The translations under genes were made by a program, and so were the position numbers. This document shows positions 2,227 to 35,547 of a stretch of 38,116 bases of DNA, in pieces. Positions within the stretch are counted from its first letter, which is position 1; each line of letters begins with the position of its first letter. Under the pieces are notes generated by a model. It was not told where the DNA came from, searched no databases, and was given only the letters and a program-made list of their open reading frames with translations. Source of the stretch: Dehalococcoidia bacterium LH_S1 (GTDB taxonomy: Bacteria > Chloroflexota > Dehalococcoidia > SZUA-161 > SpSt-899); assembly GCA_023660035.1 (NCBI GenBank), contig JAGXOF010000002.1, positions 1 to 38,116 on the forward strand. Reading direction: 5' to 3'.

Positions 2227-2913
2227 TTACATCAAGCTTTTTGACGCGAGCACGTATCGCCATAGCGTCGACCAGAATGGCCCTGGAGCATGCTCAACTC
2301 GACATATCTGAGGTGGAACCAAGCCGGGTAGGGGTTGTGCTGGCTACGAGTGGAATGGTCTGGGCGATCTCCGAGCAGGGGGAAATGCTTAAAAAGAGAG
2401 GCCCGATGCGGATCGATCCCCTATTTATCAGCCGGATTGCACCAAGCATGGTCTCGGCACAGGTGGGATTAGAGTTCCATGCCAAAGGGCCGAATACCAC
2501 CCTTAACAGTGCCTGCGCCAGCGGCAGCGATGCGTTGGGAACAGCTCTGAATCATATCCGCCTGGGACATGCGGATATCATGAGCTGCAGGGGATCCGAG
2601 ACGAATATCAGTCCGATAGCCATTGCCAGCAATGCACGGATTGGAGCGCTGTCAAAGCAACCTGAGCCTTTGAAGGTATCCAGGCCCTTTGATCTTAATC
2701 GAGACGGATTTGTATTTGCGGAAGGCAATCGCCACTGTTCAAACCCTGCTAAATGGAGTTATCCCACCGACTATCAACTACGAAACGCCGGACCCCGAAT
2801 GTGACCTTGACTATGTTCCTGATAAGGCATGGCAGCAAAAGGTGTATGTGTGTCTGTCCAACTCCTTTGGCATGGGGGGACAGAATTGCACCCTTGTGCT
2901 AAGGGGTATTTAA
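2223..2913 (+). pseudogene. fabF: fabF-type beta-ketoacyl-ACP synthase II remnant (N-terminal truncation, internal deletion plus frameshift)
   Basis: ORF 2223..2804 carries ...KGPNTTLNSACASGSDALG (active-site Cys) ...[16 protein letters not shown]. The frame then breaks at about 2725. The C-terminal motifs [21 protein letters not shown]...[15 protein letters not shown] continue in another frame (ORF 2689..2913). The roughly 130-codon segment holding the catalytic His residues and the first roughly 70 codons are missing. Confidence 0.8.
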
Positions 2914-2933
2914 TACTGTTATAGGGAAGGATT

Positions 2934-3683
2934 ATGAGTGCTAAAGAGCTTGAAGGGAAAGTGTCGCTAGTGACCGGGGGGTCGCGGGGCTTGGGACGGG
3001 CCATTGCGCTCAAGCTGACTGATCTCGGTTCCAAAGTGGCCATCAACTATGTTTCCAATGATGAAGAGGCTGCTAATGTGGGCAAAGCCATCGAGAGTAG
3101 GGGAGGGGAGGCTCTGCTTGTTAAAGCGGATGTGGCAGACTCCAAAGCGGTCAAGAACATGACCCGGGATGTAGCCAAGAACTGGGGCACGATCGATATA
3201 CTGGTTAACAATGCCGGCATCGTTGATGATAACCTGTTACTTCGCATGTCCGATGAGAGCTGGGATAACGTTATCAATACGAATCTCCGTGGTGCATACC
3301 TGTGTACCAGATTTTCCCTGCGCTATATGATGAGCCAGTCCTGGGGTAGGGTGATTAATGTTGCTTCGCTTGCGGGGGTGGTGGGGAATATGGGACAGGC
3401 TAATTACTCCGCTGCCAAGGGCGGGCTCATAGCCTTTACCAAGAGTGTGGCCAGGGAAGTGGGTTCCAGAAACATAACCGCAAACGCCATAGCTCCGGGA
3501 TTTATTACCACTGAGATGACTGAAAAACTCCCACAGGAAACCAGGGAGAATATCCTCGCCCGTATTCCACTGCAACGATTTGGTAACCCTGAGGATGTCG
3601 CGGAACTTGTTGCATTCCTTGCCACCGACCGAGCTTCGTATATAACGACACAGGTGATATGTATTGACGGCGGAGTGATGTGA
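2934..3683 (+). CDS. fabG: 3-oxoacyl-ACP reductase (SDR)
   Basis: TGGSRGLGRAIA Rossmann motif, NNAG, S...YSAAK catalytic signature. 249 aa, apparently intact. Confidence 0.88.
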   Translation: MSAKELEGKVSLVTGGSRGLGRAIALKLTDLGSKVAINYVSNDEEAANVGKAIESRGGEALLVKADVADSKAVKNMTRDVAKNWGTIDILVNNAGIVDDNLLLRMSDESWDNVINTNLRGAYLCTRFSLRYMMSQSWGRVINVASLAGVVGNMGQANYSAAKGGLIAFTKSVAREVGSRNITANAIAPGFITTEMTEKLPQETRENILARIPLQRFGNPEDVAELVAFLATDRASYITTQVICIDGGVM

Positions 3684-3690
3684 ACTGGAG

Positions 3691-4372
3691 GTGAGTGTGT
3701 CCAGAGTAGGCATTGTGACTGACAGCACGAGCTGCTTGCCGCCTGACATGGTGAAGGAATACGACATAAGAATCGTTCCTGCAACCCGTATGATCGATGG
3801 CAAGGCTTACTCGGATCCGGTAGGTTTAACCTCTGATGTGTTCTGGCATCTGTTCAAAGGAGCAAAGGAGATGCCTACCACCGGTGCCATAAGTGCAGGG
3901 GCCTTTGCGGCTACGTTCCTTGAGCTTTCGAAGTCTGTGGATAGTATTCTGTGTATATTTGTCTCCAAGGCGCTTAGTGCAATCAATGAATCGGCGGTAC
4001 AGGCCAGTGAGATGGTGAAGTCCAGAGATTCCAATACGTCCATCGAGATTATCGATAGCAAGACTTCGACGGGGGCAATGGGCTTCCTTGTCATGGAGGC
4101 AGCGCGAGCTGCTCAGGCGGGGTAAGAGCCTCGAGGAGGTGGCGCAGGTGGTACAGGAGATGATCCCGAGGGTGAAATACGTGTTCGTTCTGGATACTCT
4201 CAAGTAAACCCATTCATCTCATGGTTCACTATACGGACAGCTTCGAAGATGGGGAAGAGCTTTGGAACGCTGGCGCTTGCTTTCTACTCCTGAGTTCGTG
4301 TAAAGCGTCATCCATTCAGTATCCTGTAATCTTTTGCCGTTGCAGGTTTTTGAGTTTATTGATAGAATAATC
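3691..4372 (+). pseudogene. DegV-family fatty-acid-binding protein remnant (frameshift, premature stop, internal deletion)
   Basis: VGIVTDSTSCLPPDMVKEYDIRIVP...IEIIDSKTSTGAMGFLV is DegV-like and stops at 4125. KSLEEVAQVVQEMIPRVKYVFVLDTLK* continues in a shifted frame to 4206. A further fragment, IHLMVHYTDSFEDGEEL, lies in a third frame. Confidence 0.7.
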
Positions 4373-4376
4373 GTGC

Positions 4377-4462
4377 GCCGAAGTGGCGGAATGGCAGACG
4401 CGCATGGTTCAGGACTATGTGGGGGCAGCCCCGTGAGGGTTCAAATCCCTCCTTCGGCACCA
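4377..4462 (+). tRNA. tRNA-Leu (anticodon CAG)
   Basis: Acceptor GCCGAAG/CTTCGGC, anticodon loop TTCAGGA, long variable arm TGGGGGCAGCCCCGT, T arm GAGGG-TTCAAAT-CCCTC, encoded CCA. 86 nt. Confidence 0.93.
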
Positions 4463-4470
4463 ATAAGCAA

Positions 4471-4546
4471 GCGCCTGTAGCTCAGTGGATAGAGCGCAGC
4501 CCTGCGGAGGCTGAGGCCGCGGGTTCGAGTCCCGCCGGGCGTGCCA
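4471..4546 (+). tRNA. tRNA-Arg (anticodon GCG)
   Basis: Acceptor GCGCCTG/CGGGCGT, D arm GCTC-AGTGGATA-GAGC, anticodon stem CAGCC/GGCTG with loop CTGCGGA, T arm GCGGG-TTCGAGT-CCCGC, encoded CCA. 76 nt. Confidence 0.9.
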
Positions 4547-5009: not shown

Positions 5010-5159
5010 GACCAATTCGTGATCATGCCCAACCATATTCACGGCATCATTTGCATTACACCCTCGGCGGGGGCAGACCAATGTGTCTGCCCTGATGGTT
5101 TGGGCGAACACACAGGTTCGCCCCTACAATCTACAATCGCTACAATCGCGGTGTGTTAG
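5010..5159 (+). pseudogene. Fragment of an IS200/RayT-type (Y1, REP-associated) transposase
   Basis: Reads DQFVIMPNHIHGIICITPSAGADQCVCPDGLGEHTGSPLQ...*. The (Y/F)VIMPNH(I/V)HGI and GEHxGSPL strings are typical of the central/C-terminal part of these about 150-180 aa proteins. The N-terminal part is absent. Confidence 0.6.
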
Positions 5160-5228: not shown

Positions 5229-6005
5229 ATGCGCACGCAACTATTGAAAATCCTTGGGATAATCCTGCTGGTTGCTGGGTTAGTAATGATGCTGGTGCCG
5301 GGGGTGGGGGCGGCGAATGGTGGTAGTGTTGCAGACCATGTGGTGATAAGCGAGGTTCAAATAGATAGCATTGATGGATCAGGAGGTACTGGTGATGATT
5401 GGATTGAGCTTTATAACCCAACAGCTAATGAGATTGACCTCACTGATTGGCATCTTGGTAGAGACTCGAATGGTGGAAACTTACTTACTGATAAAATGAA
5501 AATAACTGATGGAACAATACCTAAGAGCGGGTTCTTTTTAGTGGTAAGTGCTAGTGCAAAGACCGAGCTTAAAGACCTTGCTGATGCTGAGTGGTCGGGA
5601 CTAACCTTTGATGCCCACGATGTTCTATATTTGGCAAATGCCGATATCACTGATAGCAATCCTCAGGGCGATCAAGATGTGATTGATATACTTGGATTGG
5701 AAGGATGTGAGCCTTCCACAGATGCAGAAGGGTCGCCTGCTCCTAATCCAGTAGGTGGCGAGAGCATCCAGAGAAAAATGAGCGATACAGAGGATGAAGA
5801 TAGTTATGGCCCTGCCCAGGACACCGATGATAACAGTGCTGATTTCTTCATTCAAAGTGATCCCGATCCCCAGAATTCAGGAAGCTCACCCGAGCCTCCC
5901 GTCCCCAACCTCCCCACCATCACCCTATTCTCCCTTGGCTTGCTTGCCCTTGGCGGATATATTTGGTTCAAACGGCGTCCAAAATTCCGCGGGTGCGATT
6001 CATGA
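5229..6005 (+). CDS. Secreted lamin-tail-domain (LTD) protein with a C-terminal PEP-CTERM-like sorting signal
   Basis: N-terminal signal peptide. LTD signature HVVISEVQ...GDDWIELYNPTANEIDLTDWHL. Acidic low-complexity spacer. The C-terminus SSPEPPVPNLPTITLFSLGLLALGGYIWFKRRPK has the Pro-rich motif, hydrophobic helix and basic cluster. Confidence 0.8.
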   Translation: MRTQLLKILGIILLVAGLVMMLVPGVGAANGGSVADHVVISEVQIDSIDGSGGTGDDWIELYNPTANEIDLTDWHLGRDSNGGNLLTDKMKITDGTIPKSGFFLVVSASAKTELKDLADAEWSGLTFDAHDVLYLANADITDSNPQGDQDVIDILGLEGCEPSTDAEGSPAPNPVGGESIQRKMSDTEDEDSYGPAQDTDDNSADFFIQSDPDPQNSGSSPEPPVPNLPTITLFSLGLLALGGYIWFKRRPKFRGCDS

Positions 6006-6016
6006 ATCGCACCCGC
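5989..6016. repeat. Perfect 28-bp palindrome spanning the LTD gene stop codon
   Basis: GCGGGTGCGATT-CATG-AATCGCACCCGC forms a 12-bp perfect stem with loop CATG and no following U-tract. It lies 14 nt before the exosortase start. Confidence 0.85.
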
Positions 6017-6029
6017 CTCTAATATAAAG

Positions 6030-6857
6030 ATGACCAAAGTGAAACCGGGCGCGTTTATCGGTCCGTTCATCATCCTTGCCTTCCTGATTCTTCTCTATTT
6101 TCCCACCTTCCAGTGGATTGTAAACTCATGGCTTCACTCCAGCTATTACTCACACGGGTTTCTCATCATCCCTATCGCTGCCTTTATTGCCTGGACCCGG
6201 AGAGGTGAACTGAGACAGGCCGCGCCTTCTCGCATTGGTATATGGGTTCTTATTGCGGGTTTGGCCCTCTACGTGAGTGGTGTGCTTTATGCGTCTGACT
6301 TTCTTCGTGCACTATCGTTCTTGGTAGTCATTTCGGGACTCGTACTCTATTTCCGCGGCAGGAAAACCTTCAGGGCCCTTGCCTTTCCTATATGCTTCCT
6401 TATCTTTATGATCCCTTCCCCTTCCTTGGACATGATTGGCTACTGGCTGCAGTCCTTTTCGGCTCAGTCCTCTGCATGGGTCATATCGCAATTTGGTATC
6501 CCTGTAACTAGGACAGGTGCCGAAATCCATCTCGGAAATGCATCATTCGTTGTCGGTATGGCATGTAGCGGTTTGAACAGCTTGATCGCTCTTTTGGCAT
6601 TGGCGGCTCTCTTCGCATATGTCCTCAAGAGGCCATTTGTGAAAAAGGTTGTGCTTTTTGCCTTGTCTGTTCCTGTTGCGCTGTTTGCTAACTTGCTCCG
6701 GTTGGTTACCTTGCTTCTCATAGGTCACCACTGGGGAAGCGACTATGCTACCGGGTTTATGCACACTGCTTTCAGTCCGCTCTTCTTCATCGTCTCTCTG
6801 GTGTGTTTAGTTCTTGTGGCGAGGTTGCTTGGATTGAGATTGTGGAAGGCAGCTTGA
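6030..6857 (+). CDS. Exosortase/archaeosortase-family integral membrane transpeptidase
   Basis: N-terminal YYSHGFLIIPIAAFIAW motif, candidate catalytic Cys in GMACSGLNSLIALLAL, and downstream ANLLRLVTLLLIGHHWG carrying the conserved Arg and His. Polytopic, 275 aa. Confidence 0.8.
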   Translation: MTKVKPGAFIGPFIILAFLILLYFPTFQWIVNSWLHSSYYSHGFLIIPIAAFIAWTRRGELRQAAPSRIGIWVLIAGLALYVSGVLYASDFLRALSFLVVISGLVLYFRGRKTFRALAFPICFLIFMIPSPSLDMIGYWLQSFSAQSSAWVISQFGIPVTRTGAEIHLGNASFVVGMACSGLNSLIALLALAALFAYVLKRPFVKKVVLFALSVPVALFANLLRLVTLLLIGHHWGSDYATGFMHTAFSPLFFIVSLVCLVLVARLLGLRLWKAA

Positions 6858-6862
6858 GTTGA

Positions 6863-7498
6863 TTGATAAGGGGACTTCCATTGAGAGTTGCTAGGATTTA
6901 TAATAATCACGTGCTCTTATTTGCTCATACAGGAATAACTTTAGGGATGGCGTGGGGAGCAGACAAGCTGCGCTCGAGAGGAGTTATATCTTTGGAAGAA
7001 GGTCGAAGTCGGCTTGCCAGTTCTCGGGCTGGTGCTATTACTCGACTGGTTGACTTCCGGCTTGCTTTGGTGGGATCCATGTTGCCGGACATAATAGATA
7101 AGCCTATTGGGATATATATCTTCACCGGAACATTTAGCAACGGCCGCATTTATGCTCATACGCTGCTTTTCTTTCTCGTCCTTTTTCTCATTGGCTTATT
7201 CCGCTACATCCGCGCCGGTGGGATAGGCATGTTGGTCCTGGCCATTTGTTCCGGATTTCACCTTGTTCTGGACCAGATGTGGCTTGAGCCAAAGACATTG
7301 CTATGGCCTTTGTTTGGGTTGACATTTCCAAAGGAGAACCTGGACAACTGGGTGTTAGGGCTATTTGATGCTTTGCAAACGGAGCCTGCCGTTTACATCT
7401 CTGAAATAGTGGGACTATTAATACTCCTTGCATTTGGGATAGAATTGCTCAGGAGCAGGAACCTCCTACATTTCTTGAAAAGTGGGATTGCGAGATGA
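6863..7498 (+). CDS. YdjM/DUF457-like membrane-bound metal-dependent hydrolase
   Basis: Multi-TM protein with FAHTGITLG near the N-terminus and the LPDIIDKPIG motif. The start is uncertain: TTG 6863, or GTG 6911 giving VLLFAHTG. Confidence 0.55.
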   Translation: MIRGLPLRVARIYNNHVLLFAHTGITLGMAWGADKLRSRGVISLEEGRSRLASSRAGAITRLVDFRLALVGSMLPDIIDKPIGIYIFTGTFSNGRIYAHTLLFFLVLFLIGLFRYIRAGGIGMLVLAICSGFHLVLDQMWLEPKTLLWPLFGLTFPKENLDNWVLGLFDALQTEPAVYISEIVGLLILLAFGIELLRSRNLLHFLKSGIAR

Positions 7499-8697
7499 AC
7501 AGCTACGACGTCTTGATAATCGGCGCGGGACCTGTGGGAAGCCAGGTGGCTTACAGGTTAGCCAGCCTGGGCTACAGGGTGGTGGTGATTGAAAGAGATG
7601 GGGAAGTTGGCAGTCATGTTTGCTGCACAGGAATTATTAGCAGGGAGTGTGTGGAGCTTTTTGACATAGATTCAAGCTGTATCTTGTGGGAAGCATCATC
7701 GGCGAAGGTTTTTGCCCCCTCAGGAGACTCTCTAAGGATCAGCAAGGACGATGTCCAGGCATATATTGTAGAACGTGCTTCGTTTGATTCTAGTCTGGCT
7801 GAGAGGGCTCAGAGGAAGGGAGCGGAATATGTGTTGAGCAGCCGGGTTACTGATATCTCGGTTTCAGATGATGGTGTTATGCTTCATCTTGAGGGTGGAG
7901 ATGGAGGAAGGTCTCTTAAAGGGAAAGCGGTGGTTATCGCCAATGGGTTTGGCTCCACATTGCCCAGCAAGTTGGGTCTGGGACGTATACAGGAGTTCAT
8001 TATAGGTGCTCAGACTGAGGTGCATACGGAAGGAGTGGACGAAGTTGAGGTCTACTTAAGCCATAGCATAGCACCAGGATTCTTTGCCTGGTTGGCTCCC
8101 GTTTCCACAAATAGGGCTCGAGCTGGGCTTTTTGCTCATGAGAAATCCAGGCCTCACATGAAATCCTTTCTGTCAGATCTTGCTTCGCGAGGGAAGGTCC
8201 GAGATGTTGAGGGGGTGGTTACATGCGGCGGGATTCCGCTCAAGCCGCTTGCCAGGAGCTATGGAGATAGGGTGTTGGTGGTGGGGGATGCGGCGGGGCA
8301 AGTTAAGCCCACAACTGGTGGAGGGATCTATTTTGGGCTCATCTGTGCTGATATTGCCTCGGGTGTTTTGGGGGAGGCTCTTGCTGCTGGTGATTTATCC
8401 GCCAGGATGCTTGCCCGATACGAGAGCTTGTGGAAGGAGAAGCTGAATCGGGAACTCAAAACCGAGTATCTGATTCGCAAGCTGTACAACAAGCTCTCAG
8501 ACAAGCAAATTGGGACCATATTTAAGGTTGTCAGGGAGAAGCACATTCATAGAAGTTTGCTTGATTCGCCGTCCCTATCATTTGACTGGCATGGCGAGCT
8601 TCTGCTCGAAGGGTTGAGAAGAGCGGGTTTCTGGCATGATATTACCAAGACGTATCTACCTGCCGGCGTTTGGGCTTATTTGCGAAAGGATGGCTGA
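7495..8697 (+). CDS. Geranylgeranyl reductase-family FAD-dependent oxidoreductase
   Basis: YDVLIIGAGPVGS dinucleotide-binding motif and GDAAGQVKPTTGGGIYFG motif. 400 aa. The ATG overlaps the preceding stop (ATGA). Confidence 0.75.
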   Translation: MNSYDVLIIGAGPVGSQVAYRLASLGYRVVVIERDGEVGSHVCCTGIISRECVELFDIDSSCILWEASSAKVFAPSGDSLRISKDDVQAYIVERASFDSSLAERAQRKGAEYVLSSRVTDISVSDDGVMLHLEGGDGGRSLKGKAVVIANGFGSTLPSKLGLGRIQEFIIGAQTEVHTEGVDEVEVYLSHSIAPGFFAWLAPVSTNRARAGLFAHEKSRPHMKSFLSDLASRGKVRDVEGVVTCGGIPLKPLARSYGDRVLVVGDAAGQVKPTTGGGIYFGLICADIASGVLGEALAAGDLSARMLARYESLWKEKLNRELKTEYLIRKLYNKLSDKQIGTIFKVVREKHIHRSLLDSPSLSFDWHGELLLEGLRRAGFWHDITKTYLPAGVWAYLRKDG

Positions 8698-17193: not shown

Positions 17194-17233
17194 ATCAACT
17201 AGATTTGTATTTAAGCAAATTAGGTTGTTCAAT

Positions 17234-18268
17234 ATGCCACAAACAGGGGTGATCATCCTAGCTCATGGGAGCCGCGGCGAGCGAGGTGTTGTAGAAGTCT
17301 CCGAGACCTTGAGAAGGGTTAGTGAGGGGGTGAAGCCCATGTTGCGACCGGGAGTAAAAGTTATTGGGGCAGCACTCCAATTTAACCACCCCAGCCTAGA
17401 AGAAGCCGTGGAGTCTTTGGCAGGGTGGGGTGTCAATCGGATGGTAATAATGCCCTACTTTCTTTTCCCAGGACGACACATTACTGAGGATATCCCTCAG
17501 CTTATTGAGCGGCTTAAGTGCACCTATCCAGAAACACAATTCATTATAACCGATATCCTCGGCTTGAATGAGCATTTTATCGATCGAGTGGCAAAATGCA
17601 TAGAGAAGGCTGCCCCCGAGCTTTCGGCGAAAGCTCGGGGTTCATCTAGCTCTGCTGAGGCGATCGAGTACCAAAGTCTAGAAATAATAGAGGGTTTGCT
17701 GCCGTCACTGGACTGCTCTGAGGAGGAACGTCAGGTAATAAAGCGCATTGTCCATGCCGCCGGCGACTCCCAAATCGCCCGTCTTGTCCGGTTTCATACC
17801 AATGCGGTCTCTGCGGGTATTGACACCATTCGCCAAGGAAAGCCGATATTCACCGACGTCAGGATGGTAGCCGTAGGTATCAATCCCCATCTCACTCAAG
17901 AGTTTGGCTGTTCCATACATTGCGCTCTAGATGAACTGAATACGATGGGACAGGCTCAAGAGGAAGGTGTTACCCGAAACGCTGCTGCTATCCGCTTTCT
18001 AGGAAGAAAGCTCGATGGGGCAATTGTTACCATTGGCAATGCCCCTACCGCTTTACTTGCCCTACTCGAGCTAATTGACAGTGGAGATGTTCTGCCGTCT
18101 CTCGTTGTAGGAATGCCTGTCGGCTTTGTGCAGGCTAGGGAATCGAAGGCAGACTTAATTAAGCGGAACATACCCTATATCACCATTGAGGGAACTCGGG
18201 GGGGGAGCGCAGTAGCTACAGCTACAGTCAATGCACTGCTAAACCTTGCCCGGGAGATTCACAAATGA
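17234..18268 (+). CDS. cbiX/cbiC: Fusion protein: small CbiX-type sirohydrochlorin cobaltochelatase (N) plus cobalt-precorrin-8 methylmutase CbiC (C)
   Basis: N-terminal about 125 aa: VIILAHGSRGERG...MPYFLFPGRHITEDIP (CbiX small). C-terminal about 210 aa: IVHAAGD..., IFTDVRMV, GNAPTALLALLELI, VVGMPVGFVQARESKA, EGTRGGSAVATATVNAL (CbiC/CobH). Confidence 0.85.
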   Translation: MPQTGVIILAHGSRGERGVVEVSETLRRVSEGVKPMLRPGVKVIGAALQFNHPSLEEAVESLAGWGVNRMVIMPYFLFPGRHITEDIPQLIERLKCTYPETQFIITDILGLNEHFIDRVAKCIEKAAPELSAKARGSSSSAEAIEYQSLEIIEGLLPSLDCSEEERQVIKRIVHAAGDSQIARLVRFHTNAVSAGIDTIRQGKPIFTDVRMVAVGINPHLTQEFGCSIHCALDELNTMGQAQEEGVTRNAAAIRFLGRKLDGAIVTIGNAPTALLALLELIDSGDVLPSLVVGMPVGFVQARESKADLIKRNIPYITIEGTRGGSAVATATVNALLNLAREIHK

Positions 18269-30481: not shown

Positions 30482-31174
30482 TTGAGACACCTCTGGCAAC
30501 GTTTCCTCATTACCAGCCTGATGAGTCCACTGCTCTATCTTCTCGCCTTTGGCTACGGGCTGGGAAGAGGTATGGAAGTTGAAGGGGTAAGCTATCTTGA
30601 GTTTGTGATTCCAGGGATCATTGCCCTTACCGCCATGACCACGAGCTTTAATAGTGCCGGAATGAAGCTGAATGTAGACCGGCTTTTTTACAAATGTTTT
30701 GATGAGATTTTGATGGCTCCGGTAAGCCCGTTATCCTTGATACTTGGGAAGTCCCTAATAGGTGTCCTGCGAGGACTTATCGTCTCCCTGGTTTTCCTGA
30801 TAATAGGCATAGCTATCTCTCCAATGAAGGTTAGTCCGCTTTTCATATTGCCCCTGTTGCTCACTTGCTTCACCTTTTCCTTCATGGGTGTTCTGGCTGC
30901 CCTGCTGGCAAAATCGCATCAGGATATGGCCACCTTCAGCAGCCTAGTGCTGTTACCGATGACTTTTCTTGGTGGCACCTTCTTCTCTTCAAGCCAGTTG
31001 CCACAGGCGCTAAAGGTTATCCTATATATCATCCCACTGACTCATTCCAGTCAATGCCTGCGAGCGGTAACTCTTGGGCAGCCTTTCCCTTGGCTCTCTT
31101 TATTAGCTATTGTGGGCTTCGGGCTAGCCTTCTTTGTCGGGTGCGTGATGGTGCTAAGGAGGGCCAGTGTATAA
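30482..31174 (+). CDS. ABC-2-type exporter permease (true start probably upstream, possibly ATT at 30425)
   Basis: Six-TM ABC-2 pattern. The frame is open from 30419, and the upstream codons (KVKVLKDSYSVWWADLRIL) look like a genuine ABC-2 N-terminus. Confidence 0.8.
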   Translation: MRHLWQRFLITSLMSPLLYLLAFGYGLGRGMEVEGVSYLEFVIPGIIALTAMTTSFNSAGMKLNVDRLFYKCFDEILMAPVSPLSLILGKSLIGVLRGLIVSLVFLIIGIAISPMKVSPLFILPLLLTCFTFSFMGVLAALLAKSHQDMATFSSLVLLPMTFLGGTFFSSSQLPQALKVILYIIPLTHSSQCLRAVTLGQPFPWLSLLAIVGFGLAFFVGCVMVLRRASV

Positions 31175-31184
31175 AGGGGAAGCA

Positions 31185-33101
31185 ATGAAAAATCTCTACC
31201 CTGTTTTCCTAGACATTAACTCCAAGAAGTGCGTGGTTGTAGGAGGGGGGCAGGTTGCCGAAAGAAGGGTGAAGTCCCTCTTTGAGTGCGGTGCCTCAGT
31301 AAAGGTAATCAGTCCAGAAGTTTCCGGGAATCTTGAGCTAATGGCGGGGGAGGGGTTTATTGAGATTGTGAAGCGAGGATTTCGCTCTGGAGATCTGGAA
31401 GGTGCTCTTCTGGCTATCGCGGCCTCTGACCAGGCAGAGATTAACAGGAGCGTGGTTAATGAGGCCAAGCGGATGGGAGTGCTAGTCGACAACAGCACTG
31501 AGCCGGCTGAAGGCAGCTTTATCCTCCCCTCAGTGGTTCGCAGCGGTGGTCTAGCAATAGCCATCTCTACCAGCGGGGGCAGCCCAACTCTCGCCAGAAT
31601 GATAAGGGAAGAACTGGAGCAAAGTCTGGGGCCAGAGCATGCCACTCTCGTTGAACTCGTCTCTGAAGTGCGTGCCGAACTTCGGAGAAGAGGCAAGCAG
31701 ATTCCTTTTCAAGGGTGGCGGGACTCTATTGATTTGGAGTTACTCGGTCTAATTAAAAAGGGCAAGGTTGCTATTGCCAGGGAAAGGCTTGTCTCCAACC
31801 TAGAGAGTGGAGGAAAGCAAAGGGAGGGAATCCTGGTTGTCGGTGCAAATCATAGGACAGCCCCCGTGGAGGTGCGGGAAAAGCTTGCCTTAACCAGCAA
31901 CCAACTGGAAGAAGCTCATCATCTCCTCACCAGATATGTAAACCAGGGGGTCATCCTCAGCACCTGTAATCGTACCGAGGTCTATGCCATGGTATCCGAG
32001 CCTGAGGAGGGGATCCAGAAGGTCAGGCACCTTTTCAGCGAATGGTGTAGCGTCTCGTTAGATGAGCTCTCAAGCTATTGGTATACCTATTTTCAGGAGG
32101 ATGCGGTGAGGCACCTTTTCCAAGTATCTTCAGGATTGGATTCCATGGTTTTGGGCGATGAGCAGATTCGAGGTCAGGTGCGCCAGGCAGTTGAAGTAGC
32201 TTCGGCTGCTGGCTCACTGAAGCATCCACTCCTGCGCTTGTTCCAGCAGGCATTAGGGGTGGGTAAGCGGGTGCGAAATGAGAGCGAAATCGGGAAATAC
32301 GGGGCCTCGGCGAGTCATGCCAGTGTGGCCCTGGCTAGAAAAGTCTTTGGTGAGATTGGAGCTTGCTCGGTGCTCATTATTGGTGCTGGACAGGTGGGAA
32401 GATTGACTGCGAAGGCAATGAGGGATAGCAATGTCCAGCAACTCACCATTATCAGCCGCAACCGCGAGAAAGCAACAGCTCTGGCTGAGAGGTTCAATGC
32501 CAAGGTAGCTACATTTGACCAACTAACTGGATGTTTAGCCAACTCAGACGTCGTTATCAGCTCCACCGGTGCTAGCGACTTCATACTGAGCTCCGATGAG
32601 GTTAGACAGGCTATGCAAAGGCGGGAGCATCGACCTCTCTTGCTCATTGATATTGCTGTCCCCCGAGATATTGACCCCCAAGTGAAGGAGTTAGGGAATG
32701 TTTACCTCTGTGATATCGATGACCTTGAAGCAGTTCCCACATCTGACCCCAGCGAGAAACAAGACAAGCTATTAAAGGCAGAGGCTATCATTGACTATGA
32801 GGTAGCTAAATTTATGGAGTGGTGGCACGCTTTGGAAGTGGTGCCAACTATTATTGCTCTGCGGGGGAAAGCCGAGGATGTCCGCCAAAGAGAGGTGAAT
32901 AAGAACTCGAGCAAAATGCCAGAGCTTTCAGAAGAGGAGCGGGCACGAATCGACGCTTTGACAAGGAGTATTGTGAGTAAAATACTTCATAACCCCACTA
33001 TCGGGCTTAAGGATAGGAACAGGGGACAGAGATACCAGTTAATGGTCGAAGAGCTTTTCGCCCTAAAAGACAGCGGTTTGAATACCAGAGGTAAAGAATG
33101 A
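31185..33101 (+). CDS. hemA: Fusion protein: precorrin-2 dehydrogenase/SirC (CysG N-domain-like) plus glutamyl-tRNA reductase HemA
   Basis: N-terminus: YPVFLDINSKKCVVVGGGQVAERRV...AISTSGGSPTLARMIREELE (SirC/Met8-like). From about residue 215: ILVVGANHRTAPVEVREKL...LSTCNRTEVYA (HemA catalytic Cys) and GAGQVG NADPH site. ATG at 31185 preceded by AAGGGGA. Confidence 0.88.
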   Translation: MKNLYPVFLDINSKKCVVVGGGQVAERRVKSLFECGASVKVISPEVSGNLELMAGEGFIEIVKRGFRSGDLEGALLAIAASDQAEINRSVVNEAKRMGVLVDNSTEPAEGSFILPSVVRSGGLAIAISTSGGSPTLARMIREELEQSLGPEHATLVELVSEVRAELRRRGKQIPFQGWRDSIDLELLGLIKKGKVAIARERLVSNLESGGKQREGILVVGANHRTAPVEVREKLALTSNQLEEAHHLLTRYVNQGVILSTCNRTEVYAMVSEPEEGIQKVRHLFSEWCSVSLDELSSYWYTYFQEDAVRHLFQVSSGLDSMVLGDEQIRGQVRQAVEVASAAGSLKHPLLRLFQQALGVGKRVRNESEIGKYGASASHASVALARKVFGEIGACSVLIIGAGQVGRLTAKAMRDSNVQQLTIISRNREKATALAERFNAKVATFDQLTGCLANSDVVISSTGASDFILSSDEVRQAMQRREHRPLLLIDIAVPRDIDPQVKELGNVYLCDIDDLEAVPTSDPSEKQDKLLKAEAIIDYEVAKFMEWWHALEVVPTIIALRGKAEDVRQREVNKNSSKMPELSEEERARIDALTRSIVSKILHNPTIGLKDRNRGQRYQLMVEELFALKDSGLNTRGKE

Positions 33102-34024
33102 GACCAACAAGGGTGATTACCATTGGATCGCGTGGCAGTCGTCTTGCCCTCTGCCAGACGCAGCACATTGCTAATCGCCTGCAGGATTCCCATCCTCAAT
33201 TCAGGTTCGTCATCAAGCGAATAAGAACCAAAGGTGACGAGCTTGAGGAGACCCATTTATCTCGCTTTGGAGGAAAAGAGGTTTTTATCAAGGAACTGGA
33301 GGCAGCTCTATTGGCTGGTGAGAGCGACTTAGCAGTGCACAGTTTTAAGGACCTCTCCCTTCAGCCCCCACAAGGGTTGGAGATAGCAGCTGTTAGTCAA
33401 AGAGAGGATGCACGAGATGTGCTGGTCTCCGTGAAAGCTAATTCTCTAAGCCAGCTTCCCCATGGTGCCAGCATCGGCACTAGCAGTCTAAGGCGCACTG
33501 CGCAGGTCAAGTCTCTCCGCCCTGATCTTGATGTTGGCGACATCAGGGGGAACATTGACACCCGCCTCCATAAAGTCTCCAGCGGGCTGTTTGATGGTAT
33601 CATCCTCGCTGCCGCTGGAGTGATACGGCTGGGTTGGGAAGACCAAATCACCGAGTACCTTCCGATAGATATTTGCCTCCCTGCTGTGGGGCAGGGTGCA
33701 CTGGCAATAGAGGCACGGGAGGGAGACGAGGAAATAAAACCAGTGGTCTCATTTCTCAACCATGAACTCACCAGACAGGCTATCACCGCAGAACAAGTCT
33801 TCCTACGTTTCCTCGGGGGTGGCTGCCACACTCCCATTGCTGCCTTTGGCCAAATCAACAACGGAGTTCTGGAGCTAGAGGGTATGGTATCGACACCTGA
33901 CGGGAGCAAATTGCTGCGAGCGAAGGTAAAAGGCAGCGCTGAACTTCCTGAAGAAGTGGGTAGTCTCCTGGGAGAGAAGCTGATTGCCTGGGGAGCGAAA
34001 GAGATTTTGGGAGGGACAACCTGA
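33098..34024 (+). CDS. hemC: Hydroxymethylbilane synthase (porphobilinogen deaminase)
   Basis: IGSRGSRLALCQT, GNIDTRL, and the GGCHTPIAA cofactor Cys. 308 aa. Confidence 0.93.
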   Translation: MRPTRVITIGSRGSRLALCQTQHIANRLQDSHPQFRFVIKRIRTKGDELEETHLSRFGGKEVFIKELEAALLAGESDLAVHSFKDLSLQPPQGLEIAAVSQREDARDVLVSVKANSLSQLPHGASIGTSSLRRTAQVKSLRPDLDVGDIRGNIDTRLHKVSSGLFDGIILAAAGVIRLGWEDQITEYLPIDICLPAVGQGALAIEAREGDEEIKPVVSFLNHELTRQAITAEQVFLRFLGGGCHTPIAAFGQINNGVLELEGMVSTPDGSKLLRAKVKGSAELPEEVGSLLGEKLIAWGAKEILGGTT

Positions 34025-35547
34025 TGGAAGGAAAAGTCTATTTAGTGGGGGCTGGGCCCGGTAACCCCGGTCTTATCACACTCAAGGGTCTCCATTGTTT
34101 GGAGAAAGCTGATGTCATTATTTATGACCATCTTGTGGATAAAGGTCTCCTTAATAAGGTTAGATATGAAGCGGAGCTCATATATGTTGGGAAGCAATCC
34201 AAGGCACACCTGATGTCACAGAAGCAGATTAACGCTCTACTCGTGGCCAAAGCCAGGCAGGGGAAAATAGTGGTTCGTCTTAAGAGTGGCGACCCCTTCG
34301 TCCTGGGACGGGGAGGTGAGGAAACGGAAGTCTTAGCAGCCGAGGGCATCCCCTTTGAAATAGTGCCCGGCGTAACGGCAGCAATATCAGCGCCCGCTTA
34401 CGCCGGTATCCCGGTTACTCACCGTGGTCTCTCTTCGTCTTTCGCTGTAATCACTGGCCACGAAAGCTCACCTGAATCCGGGTCAAGGATAGCCTGGGAT
34501 AAAATATCCACCGGTGTTGATACCCTGGTCTTTGTAATGGGAGTAGCTAACCTTGCTTCCATTACCGCTCGTCTAATAGAGAATGGCCGTTCCTCAACCA
34601 CTCCAGTGGCTTTGATCCAATGGGGAACAACTCCGAAGCAGCAGGTTGTAGAAGGAACTCTGTCTGATATAGTCCCCAGCGCCAGGGAAACAAACACTGG
34701 CTCACCAGCAGTGCTTATAGTAGGCGAGGTGGTCAAGCTTCACCACAAACTCCGCTGGTTTGAGAATAAACCTCTCTTTGGAAAGAGGATATTGGTTACA
34801 AGGAGTAGAGAGCAAGCTAGTGCTCTCGACGACATCCTTTCTCTGGAAGGTGCTGAGCCAATCGAAATACCCACGATAAAGATTGAGCCTACTCTTAGCC
34901 AAGACCATTTAGATAATGTCCTATCGCGGCTCGCTGAGTTTCACTGGTTGCTCTTCACCAGCGTTAATGGCGTTGAAGCCTTCTTTGCCCATCTCCATCA
35001 GCATGGTCTGGACTCAAGGAAGCTATATGGCCTCAAGGTTTGTGCTATAGGTGAGGCGACAGCCACAGCATTGCGTAAATACGGGATTCAGGCTGACTTG
35101 ATACCACAGGAGTATAGCTCTCATGGCATCCTCGCCTGTCTTAAAGAAGAGGGAATAAAGGGCAAACGCCTCCTTTTGCCCTGCTCCCAGTTAATCAATA
35201 GAGACTTAATTCAGGGGCTTTCACAACTTGGGGCAGAGGTTGAGCAGGTAATATCTTATCGTACCCTGCCTGTGGATAGTGGGAAGAGCAAAGTAAAAGA
35301 GCTTCTCATAAAGGGGGAGATAGATGCGATAACTTTTACCAGTCCATCCACGGTGCGAGGACTTATCTCCATGTTGGAAAGCAAAGTGGAAGCTCTAAAT
35401 AAGGCGTTTATTGCCTGCATTGGACCGATCACTGCTGCCGCAGCAAGCGAATCCAAGTTAAGGGTAGACATGATAGCTAAGGAATATACTATCAATGGTC
35501 TGGTTGCGGCTTTGGTAGAAAGGTATAAGAAGGAGGCTGAGCGATGA
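34024..35547 (+). CDS. cobA/hemD: Bifunctional uroporphyrinogen-III C-methyltransferase / uroporphyrinogen-III synthase
   Basis: N-terminus: [18 protein letters not shown]...ADVIIYD...[12 protein letters not shown] (SUMT). C-terminal about 250 aa is HemD-like ([11 protein letters not shown]...FTSPSTV). Confidence 0.9.

Follow-up and report, generated by a model that had tools for sequence, protein, structure and literature searches.

A mildly novel exosortase module in a Dehalococcoidia bacterium, probably independent of the adjoining YdjM–geranylgeranyl reductase gene pair

The XrtA (EpsH)/PEP-CTERM system belongs to Gram-negative exopolysaccharide (EPS) loci and was reportedly described by Haft in 2006 and 2012 (NCBIfam models TIGR03109 and TIGR02595), and dedicated systems with one enzyme and one target are also said to have been described by Haft. 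Nearly all exosortase work has dealt with Gram-negative EPS and floc systems. We know of no exosortase for which the acceptor molecule has been established, and ArtA is, to our knowledge, the sole superfamily member for which a connection to a prenyl-derived lipid has been demonstrated. In Haloferax volcanii, the removal of the PGF-CTERM signal by ArtA is linked to the attachment of such a lipid (10.1101/2023.06.07.544157; PMC6098224). Here we describe an exosortase locus of Dehalococcoidia bacterium LH_S1, at positions 5229–8697 of a 38,116-nt stretch of contig JAGXOF010000002.1 (the window). The locus encodes, in order, a lamin-tail-domain (LTD) protein, an exosortase, a YdjM/DUF457-family membrane protein and an FAD enzyme of the geranylgeranyl reductase (GGR) family, and the ArtA precedent had prompted the hypothesis that the GGR participates in protein sorting.

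As claimed in a preliminary description of the sequence, four co-directional genes occupy this interval on the + strand. These are the LTD cargo gene (5229–6005, 258 aa), the exosortase gene (6030–6857, 275 aa), the YdjM gene (6911–7498, 195 aa) and the GGR gene (7495–8697, 400 aa), which encodes a soluble protein. The ATGA overlap reported for the last two genes is present as well, at 7495–7498. The longest open reading frame (ORF) for the YdjM gene begins at a TTG (6863–7498, 211 aa), but the start is most likely the GTG at 6911; with it, the invariant H7 and G9 are preserved and the N-terminus agrees with those of homologues. We propose that the locus combines two modules, a sorting pair (5229–6857) and a YdjM–GGR pair (6911–8697), which are probably independent of each other, and we give this reading a probability of about 0.68.

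The argument for two modules comes from the neighbourhoods of related genes (loci are denoted below by L numbers). Five distinct related loci with the same backbone carry the YdjM–GGR pair but no exosortase. In L094/95, whose GGR is 60% identical to that of the window, tsaD and a nitroreductase gene diverge from the series YjbQ, YdjM, GGR, ribF and an aminoacyl-tRNA synthetase gene, and the exosortase is absent. The same backbone without an exosortase is seen in L096/97 (GGR 55%), with YdjM in an uncalled gap. The pair adjoins plsX in L098/99 (GGR 52%), again without an exosortase, while L100 (GGR 52%) has the GGR alone. Likewise, L014 and L015 carry YdjM–GGR and no exosortase in the 2.7–4 kb visible upstream. 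At the place where others carry cargo and exosortase, L014 has a 373-aa protein (2893–4014) with no Pfam match.

The exosortase-bearing loci share the backbone of the exosortase-free ones. In L013, the order is YjbQ, LTD, exosortase, YdjM and GGR, with the cargo and exosortase genes placed exactly between YjbQ and YdjM; L012 reads exosortase, YdjM, GGR and ribF; and L010 has tsaD and the nitroreductase gene upstream. The cargo–exosortase module would thus be an insert that separates YjbQ from YdjM. In the GGR tree, exosortase-bearing loci are intermingled with exosortase-free ones, which fits either a single ancestral insertion with subsequent losses or several gains; in both cases, YdjM–GGR outlasts the exosortase. 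In the exosortase tree, the YdjM/GGR-linked enzymes form one clade together with the EpsI-linked enzyme of L011, and the other EpsI-linked enzymes fall outside it.

The abundance and partners of the families also differ. Homologue searches gave 260 matches for the exosortase, 934 for YdjM, mostly from Dehalococcoidia, and 3350 for the GGR (E<=1e-20). Each of the top 120 GGR matches has an identity of 49% or more, and most of them come from Dehalococcoidia. When metagenomes were scanned with a YdjM alignment, at least 509 relatives emerged. Among the 80 loci kept, a GGR gene lies downstream only in the closest (at least 50% identity); about 70 YdjM genes that are more distant adjoin neither of the two partners and share no dominant conserved neighbour. 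Conversely, the exosortases of L007 and L011, the latter 65% identical to that of the window, are accompanied by cargo with the same signal and by EpsI as partner, with no YdjM–GGR adjacent. The earlier proposal that YdjM and GGR belong to the sorting machinery is not supported, in view of the five exosortase-free loci, the 3350 to 260 ratio and the pairing of the L007 and L011 enzymes with EpsI.

The opposing explanation is functional coupling, in which an exosortase without EpsI would work with YdjM and GGR, these would prepare a saturated polyprenyl-type lipid, and the LTD protein would be transferred onto that lipid, as the counterpart of haloarchaeal ArtA anchoring. Several points favour it and weigh against two independent modules. 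The exosortase stop codon and the YdjM start (GTG 6911) are 53 nt apart on the same strand with no predicted terminator between the genes, and the four genes are therefore probably co-transcribed, as far as the sequence tells. The expected co-occurrence of YdjM and GGR with the exosortase was recovered in part: besides the five loci with YdjM–GGR and no exosortase, there are six distinct loci that keep the order exosortase–YdjM–GGR while their flanks differ, with exosortase identities of 79% (L005/6), 64% (L010), 55% (L013), 52% (L012) and about 51% (L019). None of the six trio loci shows EpsI, which is adjacent to sister exosortases, and YdjM might thus have taken over the role of EpsI as partner. 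In the window itself, there is no tblastn match with the EpsI of L009 and no PF11984 match among the ORFs. The processing of PGF-CTERM proteins by ArtA is tied to a prenyl-derived lipid (10.1101/2023.06.07.544157; PMC6098224), and, among solved structures, the GGR is closest to an archaeal reductase of membrane lipids. Furthermore, the neighbourhood comparisons rest on contig fragments, the trees are quick neighbour-joining (NJ) trees of 11 sequences each, and processing of the window LTD protein is not assured, because it carries an Asn at a near-invariant Glu of the signal.

We nevertheless consider coupling unlikely. It would have to accommodate a YdjM–GGR pair that keeps its backbone with no exosortase, GGR orthologues that outnumber the exosortases by a factor of more than ten, the interleaved GGR tree, and the L007 and L011 enzymes, which presumably function with no YdjM–GGR nearby. 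Profile searches of the ORFs in the rest of the window found no EpsI, EPS or isoprenoid-lipid genes, and literature searches on exosortases with GGR, exosortases with Dehalococcoidia and GGR with Dehalococcoidia gave nothing relevant. Since YdjM–GGR is a widespread pair that is also found without an exosortase, the new lipid-anchoring pathway suggested earlier is improbable. In its boldest form, coupling would mean that one Dehalococcoidia subclade dispensed with EpsI and wired its exosortase, operonically and functionally, to YdjM and GGR, with PVPEL-tail proteins being moved onto a saturated polyprenyl-type lipid. This is a long shot; if true, archaeosortase-dependent anchoring to isoprenoid lipids would have its first equivalent in bacteria, in a lineage whose envelope is archaeon-like and wall-less. 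Most likely, the apparent link to prenyl reduction is an effect of the site at which the sorting module was inserted. Recognizing it as mostly a synteny artefact spares follow-up effort.

For the sorting pair, the family of the enzyme is clear. The exosortase matches PF09721 with 213.6 bits against a cut-off of 25.7 (E 4e-63), TIGR02602 with 167.7 against 105.55 and TIGR04178 with 72.4 against 23. The putative catalytic residues C179 (in the CSG motif; 6564–6566), R224 (6699–6701) and H245 (6762–6764) are conserved in 98, 100 and 97% of 116 clade members, and the YSHGF motif (residues 40–44) and N221, both present in the window protein, in 97–100%. With the family profile hidden Markov models (HMMs) passed and these residues intact, the original recognition of an exosortase by its YSHGF motif and Cys/Arg/His triad is confirmed. 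A Kyte-Doolittle scan, which is a crude method, yields about 7–8 hydrophobic segments across residues 9–275. No solved homologue was found.

Placement within the family is another matter. The best named subfamily model, that of XrtA (TIGR03109), gives 196 bits, under its cut-off of 208, and the other named exosortase and archaeosortase subfamilies (XrtW, XrtD, XrtV, XrtB, the cyanoexosortases and others) all fall far below theirs, as do ArtC (38.7 against 100), ArtB (25.5 against 150) and ArtE. Classification of 6030–6857 by subfamily HMMs, which the preliminary description had called for, thus settles the family and assigns no named subfamily. By profile comparison, the enzyme is a member of an unnamed clade nearest to XrtA that is found in Chloroflexota and in some metagenome-assembled genomes (MAGs) labelled archaeal. 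EpsI is adjacent to sister exosortases in L001, L002, L007–L009 and L011. The archaeal-labelled MAGs with same-clade exosortases carry the labels Altiarchaeales, Methanomicrobia/ANME-1 and Methanosarcinales (P0031, P0040, P0062, P0080; L002, 534–2023; L008, 2661–9488). In the two of these loci that were examined, L002 and L008, EpsI is adjacent. The neighbours in L008 bear cohesin or dockerin domains, and their C-terminal tails are unlike the PVPEL type. These archaeal-labelled occurrences could reflect horizontal transfer or binning error.

The putative substrate signal lies at the C-terminus of the LTD protein (5898–6002) and has the tripartite make-up ascribed to it earlier: a motif, PVPNLP (5898–5915); a helix, TITLFSLGLLALGGYIWF (5916–5969; T230–F247); and a basic cluster, KRRPK (5970–5984), followed by FRGCDS. 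Comparison of the tails encoded beside same-clade exosortases defines the core as PVP-(E/D/N)-L, after which come a T-I-I-L…GL…GGY-W-F helix and basic residues. The aligned tails read …APVPDLPAIILFSLGLLALGGYIWFGKRR in L005, …GYPVPELPTIVLLAMGLLAFGGYFWFVKPRK in L010, …PPVPELAIIILFAFGILIFGGYFWFKNRSR in L013, and …GYPVPEL(P/S)T(I/L)(I/V)L… in the two proteins of L007 and in L011. The motif had been described as PEP followed by VPNLP. The PEP part (residues 221–223) is not conserved in relatives, whereas V225-P226-N227-L228 aligns with VPEL or VPDL, and the noted departure from the classical VPEP takes the form of PVP-(E/D/N)-L. In an alignment of 40 tail proteins, conservation is 90% or higher at P224, P226, E227, T230, I231, L233, G237, G243 and W246. 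The window tail has Asn in the Glu column (227), and its closest relative, L005, has Asp.

Against the PEP_CTERM model TIGR02595 (cut-off 16), the window tail reaches 13.2 bits, aligned over the helix and basic part only, and the tails of L007, L011 and P0382 reach 12.8–14.2 bits, below the cut-off, over the whole model. The remaining natural tails that were tested, that of L005 among them, gave no PEP_CTERM match. The window tail edited by hand from N227 to E scored 8.0 bits. Across the 40 tail proteins, PEP_CTERM registers in 14 at E<=1. The LPXTG_anchor model gives 15.6 for the window tail against a cut-off of 15.9, also over the helix and basic part only. For some tails it is near or above the cut-off, but the matches cover model positions 11–34 and leave out the LPXTG motif. 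As the helix and basic part alone are aligned, we regard these matches as a reflection of generic architecture and do not count LPXTG_anchor as a candidate. The PGF-CTERM model did not match the tails. The proposed check with sorting-signal HMMs therefore ended with no curated model passed by the LTD tail and with a near-miss to PEP_CTERM. Judged by its sequence, the tail is a near-miss variant of PEP-CTERM ('PVPEL') beyond the reach of current models, and the exosortase probably recognizes it as its cognate signal.

That no curated sorting-signal HMM was passed, and that LPXTG_anchor, on the strength of the helix and basic part alone, reaches scores similar to those of PEP_CTERM, would also be expected if the adjacency were fortuitous and the LTD tail a generic C-terminal membrane anchor that the exosortase does not recognize. 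This is very improbable. The PVPEL-x-T-I stretch ahead of the helix is conserved across unrelated cargo and abuts the helix as in PEP-CTERM. Moreover, a motif regex detected tails in eight loci with an exosortase (under nine ids, as L005 = L006) and in none of the fetched exosortase-free loci.

The signal is widespread. When the 44-residue window tail was compared exhaustively by phmmer with 1.84 billion representatives, 58 representative clusters matched at E<=1e-3; in about 50 of them, the match lies at the very C-terminal end of proteins that are unrelated in their other parts. The cargo domains, scanned in 40 of the proteins, are diverse and include LTD, beta-helix/NosD, DUF11, FG-GAP and SLT. 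Tail proteins lie beside same-clade exosortases in the window, L005, L007 (two), L009, L010 (two), L011 and L013, and the exosortase of L012 has no adjacent cargo, indicating that cargo can be encoded elsewhere. The motif regex finds one tail-bearing gene only in the 38-kb window. A hydrophobicity heuristic for further window cargo returned ordinary membrane proteins only and missed the LTD tail itself, and was set aside in favour of the regex.

Three proteins of 230–246 aa (P0366, P0381 and P0405) carry the tail of the window LTD protein and a signal peptide near-identical to its own (MRLQLMKLLGIILLLAGL…), with different mature domains; the segments they share include …DPGYPVPELPTIIL…KRRRKSGELLSC. 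This combination of shared signal peptide and tail with unrelated mature regions suggests a paralogous, cassette-like cargo family in close relatives. The preliminary description had taken the locus for a single-substrate system. The two tail proteins each of L010 and L007 and the family of P0366, P0381 and P0405 argue against this from the side of the relatives, and a 38-kb window is too small to show it. Together with the roughly 50 clusters bearing the signal and with L012, the two-cargo loci make the relation of exosortase to cargo look one-to-many, and the system probably serves more than one substrate.

A further explanation is that the cargo of the window is decaying or non-canonical, so that the LTD protein with its VPNL motif would remain uncleaved and stay C-terminally membrane-anchored at the surface, and the exosortase would serve cargo encoded elsewhere. 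The Asn of the window and the Asp of L005 in a column that is at least 90% Glu, the confinement of the PEP_CTERM match to the helix and basic part, the exosortase of L012 with no adjacent cargo and the existence of paralogous cargo with a near-identical signal peptide all point this way. However, Asp and Asn are conservative replacements for Glu, and P224, P226, T230, I231, L233, G237, G243, W246 and the basic cluster are intact. The order of cargo and exosortase genes is conserved, and the LTD gene has no frameshift or truncation. We therefore regard a decaying cargo as distinctly unlikely and continue with the reading in which the LTD protein is a substrate of the adjacent exosortase, beside an independent YdjM–GGR pair.

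The LTD protein has the features of an exported protein. Its N-terminus is hydrophobic at residues 5–23, followed by PGVGA/AN, which resembles a signal peptide of approximately residues 1–28 (5229–5312). The LTD domain occupies residues 36–139 (5334–5645; PF00932, 49.6 bits against a cut-off of 34.3), in agreement with its first recognition as a lamin-tail-domain protein bearing a signal peptide, and an Asp/Ser/Pro-rich linker (residues 140–220) leads to the C-terminal signal. The LTD region weakly matches that of the extracellular nuclease ExeM; that the protein binds extracellular DNA is speculation. LTD orthologues lie upstream of the exosortase gene in L005 and L013.

A hairpin with a perfect 12-bp stem, GCGGGUGCGAUU-CAUG-AAUCGCACCCGC (5989–6016, + strand), spans the LTD stop codon and ends 13 nt ahead of the exosortase start, with no T-run after the stem. 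The 61-nt region that holds it folds with -22.9 kcal/mol (z -4.9), a stability reached by 0 of 200 shuffles. The corresponding junction of L005 also has a strong hairpin (z -4.1); that of L010 has a 12-bp stem in a folded region that is not significant (z -1.5), and the cargo–exosortase junction of L013 has none. The hairpin suggests differential expression of cargo and enzyme, and it is possibly a partial terminator or an mRNA-stabilizing element that sets the cargo:enzyme ratio.

The second module consists of a YdjM-family protein and a flavoenzyme. YdjM, a polytopic membrane protein, matches PF04307 with 45.1 bits against 29, in line with its earlier assignment to DUF457/YdjM, for which 'metallohydrolase' is a family label only. 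In 44 sequences, H7, D49, the LPDxxDK motif at 59–65 (D61, D64), H84, H118 and D122 are invariant. Its AF2 model is all-helical (pLDDT 78.8), and neither a PDB sequence search, which gave noise only, nor Foldseek against the PDB (best E 2.6) pointed to a structural relative. Literature searches found nothing on the function of PF04307/YdjM, the papers dealing with a cell-wall protein of B. subtilis that is unrelated to it or with lists of the SOS regulon; a lead on DUF457 in a Cap1 CRISPR-effector preprint was discarded, as its 66 mentions are of DUF4579, an unrelated domain.

The GGR passes TIGR02032 with 217.3 bits against 158.8, which agrees with the family named initially, and carries the FAD-binding GxGxxG motif (IIGAGPVGS, in which GAGPVG is residues 10–15). 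Its best solved relative is 3oz2, an archaeal digeranylgeranylglycerophospholipid (DGGGPL) reductase acting on membrane lipid, with a full-length alignment (E 1.3e-29). None of the specific equivalog models was passed: BchP/ChlP gave 148 against 343, DGGGPL reductase 115.8 against 580 and MenJ 38.5 against 700. The YdjM and GGR genes overlap or abut in every locus examined (L010, L012, L013, L019, L094, L096 and L098), which indicates a translationally coupled pair, and no description of this pairing was found in the literature. It is a reasonable inference that YdjM binds or presents a polyprenyl substrate that the GGR reduces. As a conserved coupled pair in Dehalococcoidia, YdjM–GGR deserves study in its own right.

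Taken together, we envisage the following course of events. By analogy with the family (Haft 2023 preprint, 10.1101/2023.06.07.544157; PMC6098224), the N-terminal signal peptide would direct the LTD protein to export by Sec, and the C-terminal helix and the basic stop-transfer cluster would retain it in the membrane. The exosortase, a polytopic membrane cysteine enzyme (Cys179/Arg224/His245), would recognize the PVP(E/D/N)L motif abutting the helix. The helix would then be cleaved off and the LTD domain left at the cell surface on an acceptor, probably by transpeptidation, by analogy with sortase and ArtA. The YdjM–GGR pair would act on a membrane polyprenyl substrate, most likely in a housekeeping function. 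We infer that an ancestor gained the sorting module by insertion between YjbQ and YdjM, immediately upstream of the YdjM–GGR module, and that some descendants lost it later.

Elsewhere, the window holds fatty-acid synthesis genes, tRNAs, an SNase-like nuclease gene, queA, ffh and a long cobalamin/haem cluster. An Rfam scan of the window detected tRNAs only, with no riboswitch or leader near the cassette. The SNase-like gene lies upstream of the LTD gene in both the window and L005, and it appears to be part of the backbone, since L014 carries a fragment of it without the cargo–exosortase module. Genes for tRNA-Leu(cag) and tRNA-Arg(gcg) lie at 4377–4546, between the short DegV gene and the SNase–LTD–exosortase genes, with no integrase present; tRNA genes commonly serve as insertion sites. 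The spacer at 5010–5156, upstream of the LTD gene, was considered for its translation (…FVIMPNHIHGII… / …FVIMPNHIHGIICIT…), which resembles an IS200/Y1 transposase motif. Pfam gave no match of this kind, and the spacer was therefore dropped as evidence of mobility. A beta-ketoacyl synthase (KAS) ORF at 2223–2804 has only 193 aa, covering Pfam N-domain positions 90–240 and missing the C-domain, and the DegV ORF at 3691–4125, likewise short with 144 aa, corresponds to about half of a model of 280 positions. In L005, the KAS is full-length and DegV is also short. The short ORFs may be pseudogenes or assembly errors. The tetrapyrrole cluster contains three gene fusions (17225–18268, 31167–33101 and 34024–35547), of CbiX with CbiC, of the siroheme-synthase N-terminal domain with glutamyl-tRNA reductase (HemA), and of uroporphyrinogen methyltransferase with HemD.

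The Chloroflexota/Dehalococcoidia lineage of the host is generally regarded as monoderm. An exosortase clade whose hosts probably have one membrane would offer an uncomplicated context in which to study the acceptor of exosortase substrates, and a dedicated HMM for the tail would improve the annotation of surface proteomes in Dehalococcoidia.

Among the described systems, XrtA/PEP-CTERM is similar in enzyme fold family and length, in YSHGF and the Cys/Arg/His residues, and in being the best subfamily model for the window protein. The architecture of the cargo signal also agrees, with a motif abutting the helix (VPEL here, VPEP there), as do the many cargo proteins with unrelated domains and the presence of EpsI next to sister members of the clade. 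Unlike XrtA/PEP-CTERM, however, both the exosortase (196 bits against 208) and the tails (12.8–14.2 against 16) stay below the cut-offs, the signal has Leu for the second Pro and a T-I-I-L…GGY-W-F helix, the window contains no EPS locus, EpsI or PrsK/R/T regulators, and the host is a member of Chloroflexota/Dehalococcoidia.

With ArtA/PGF-CTERM, the locus shares the enzyme superfamily and the proposed chemistry, in which removal of a C-terminal helix is linked to a membrane anchor, and here too the envelope probably has no outer membrane. In contrast to ArtA, the exosortase scores far under the cut-offs of the Art models, the signal differs from PGF, the host is a bacterium with fatty-acid synthesis genes in the window, and the GGR belongs to a pair that exists without the exosortase. 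The locus is not of the ArtA type by any testable criterion.

The cargo gene directly upstream of the exosortase gene, in the window, L005, L010 and L013, recalls the dedicated one-enzyme, one-target systems, but a signal present on about 50 clusters with diverse domains, the two-cargo loci L010 and L007, and L012 with no adjacent cargo set it apart from them. The GGR resembles known geranylgeranyl reductases (the archaeal DGGGPL reductase 3oz2, BchP/ChlP, MenJ and archaeal polyprenol reductases) in its superfamily HMM and FAD motif; it differs in passing none of the equivalog models and in being coupled to a YdjM-family protein. By these comparisons of sequence, the locus is a mildly novel one: an unnamed exosortase subfamily with its own flavour of signal, PVPEL-CTERM.

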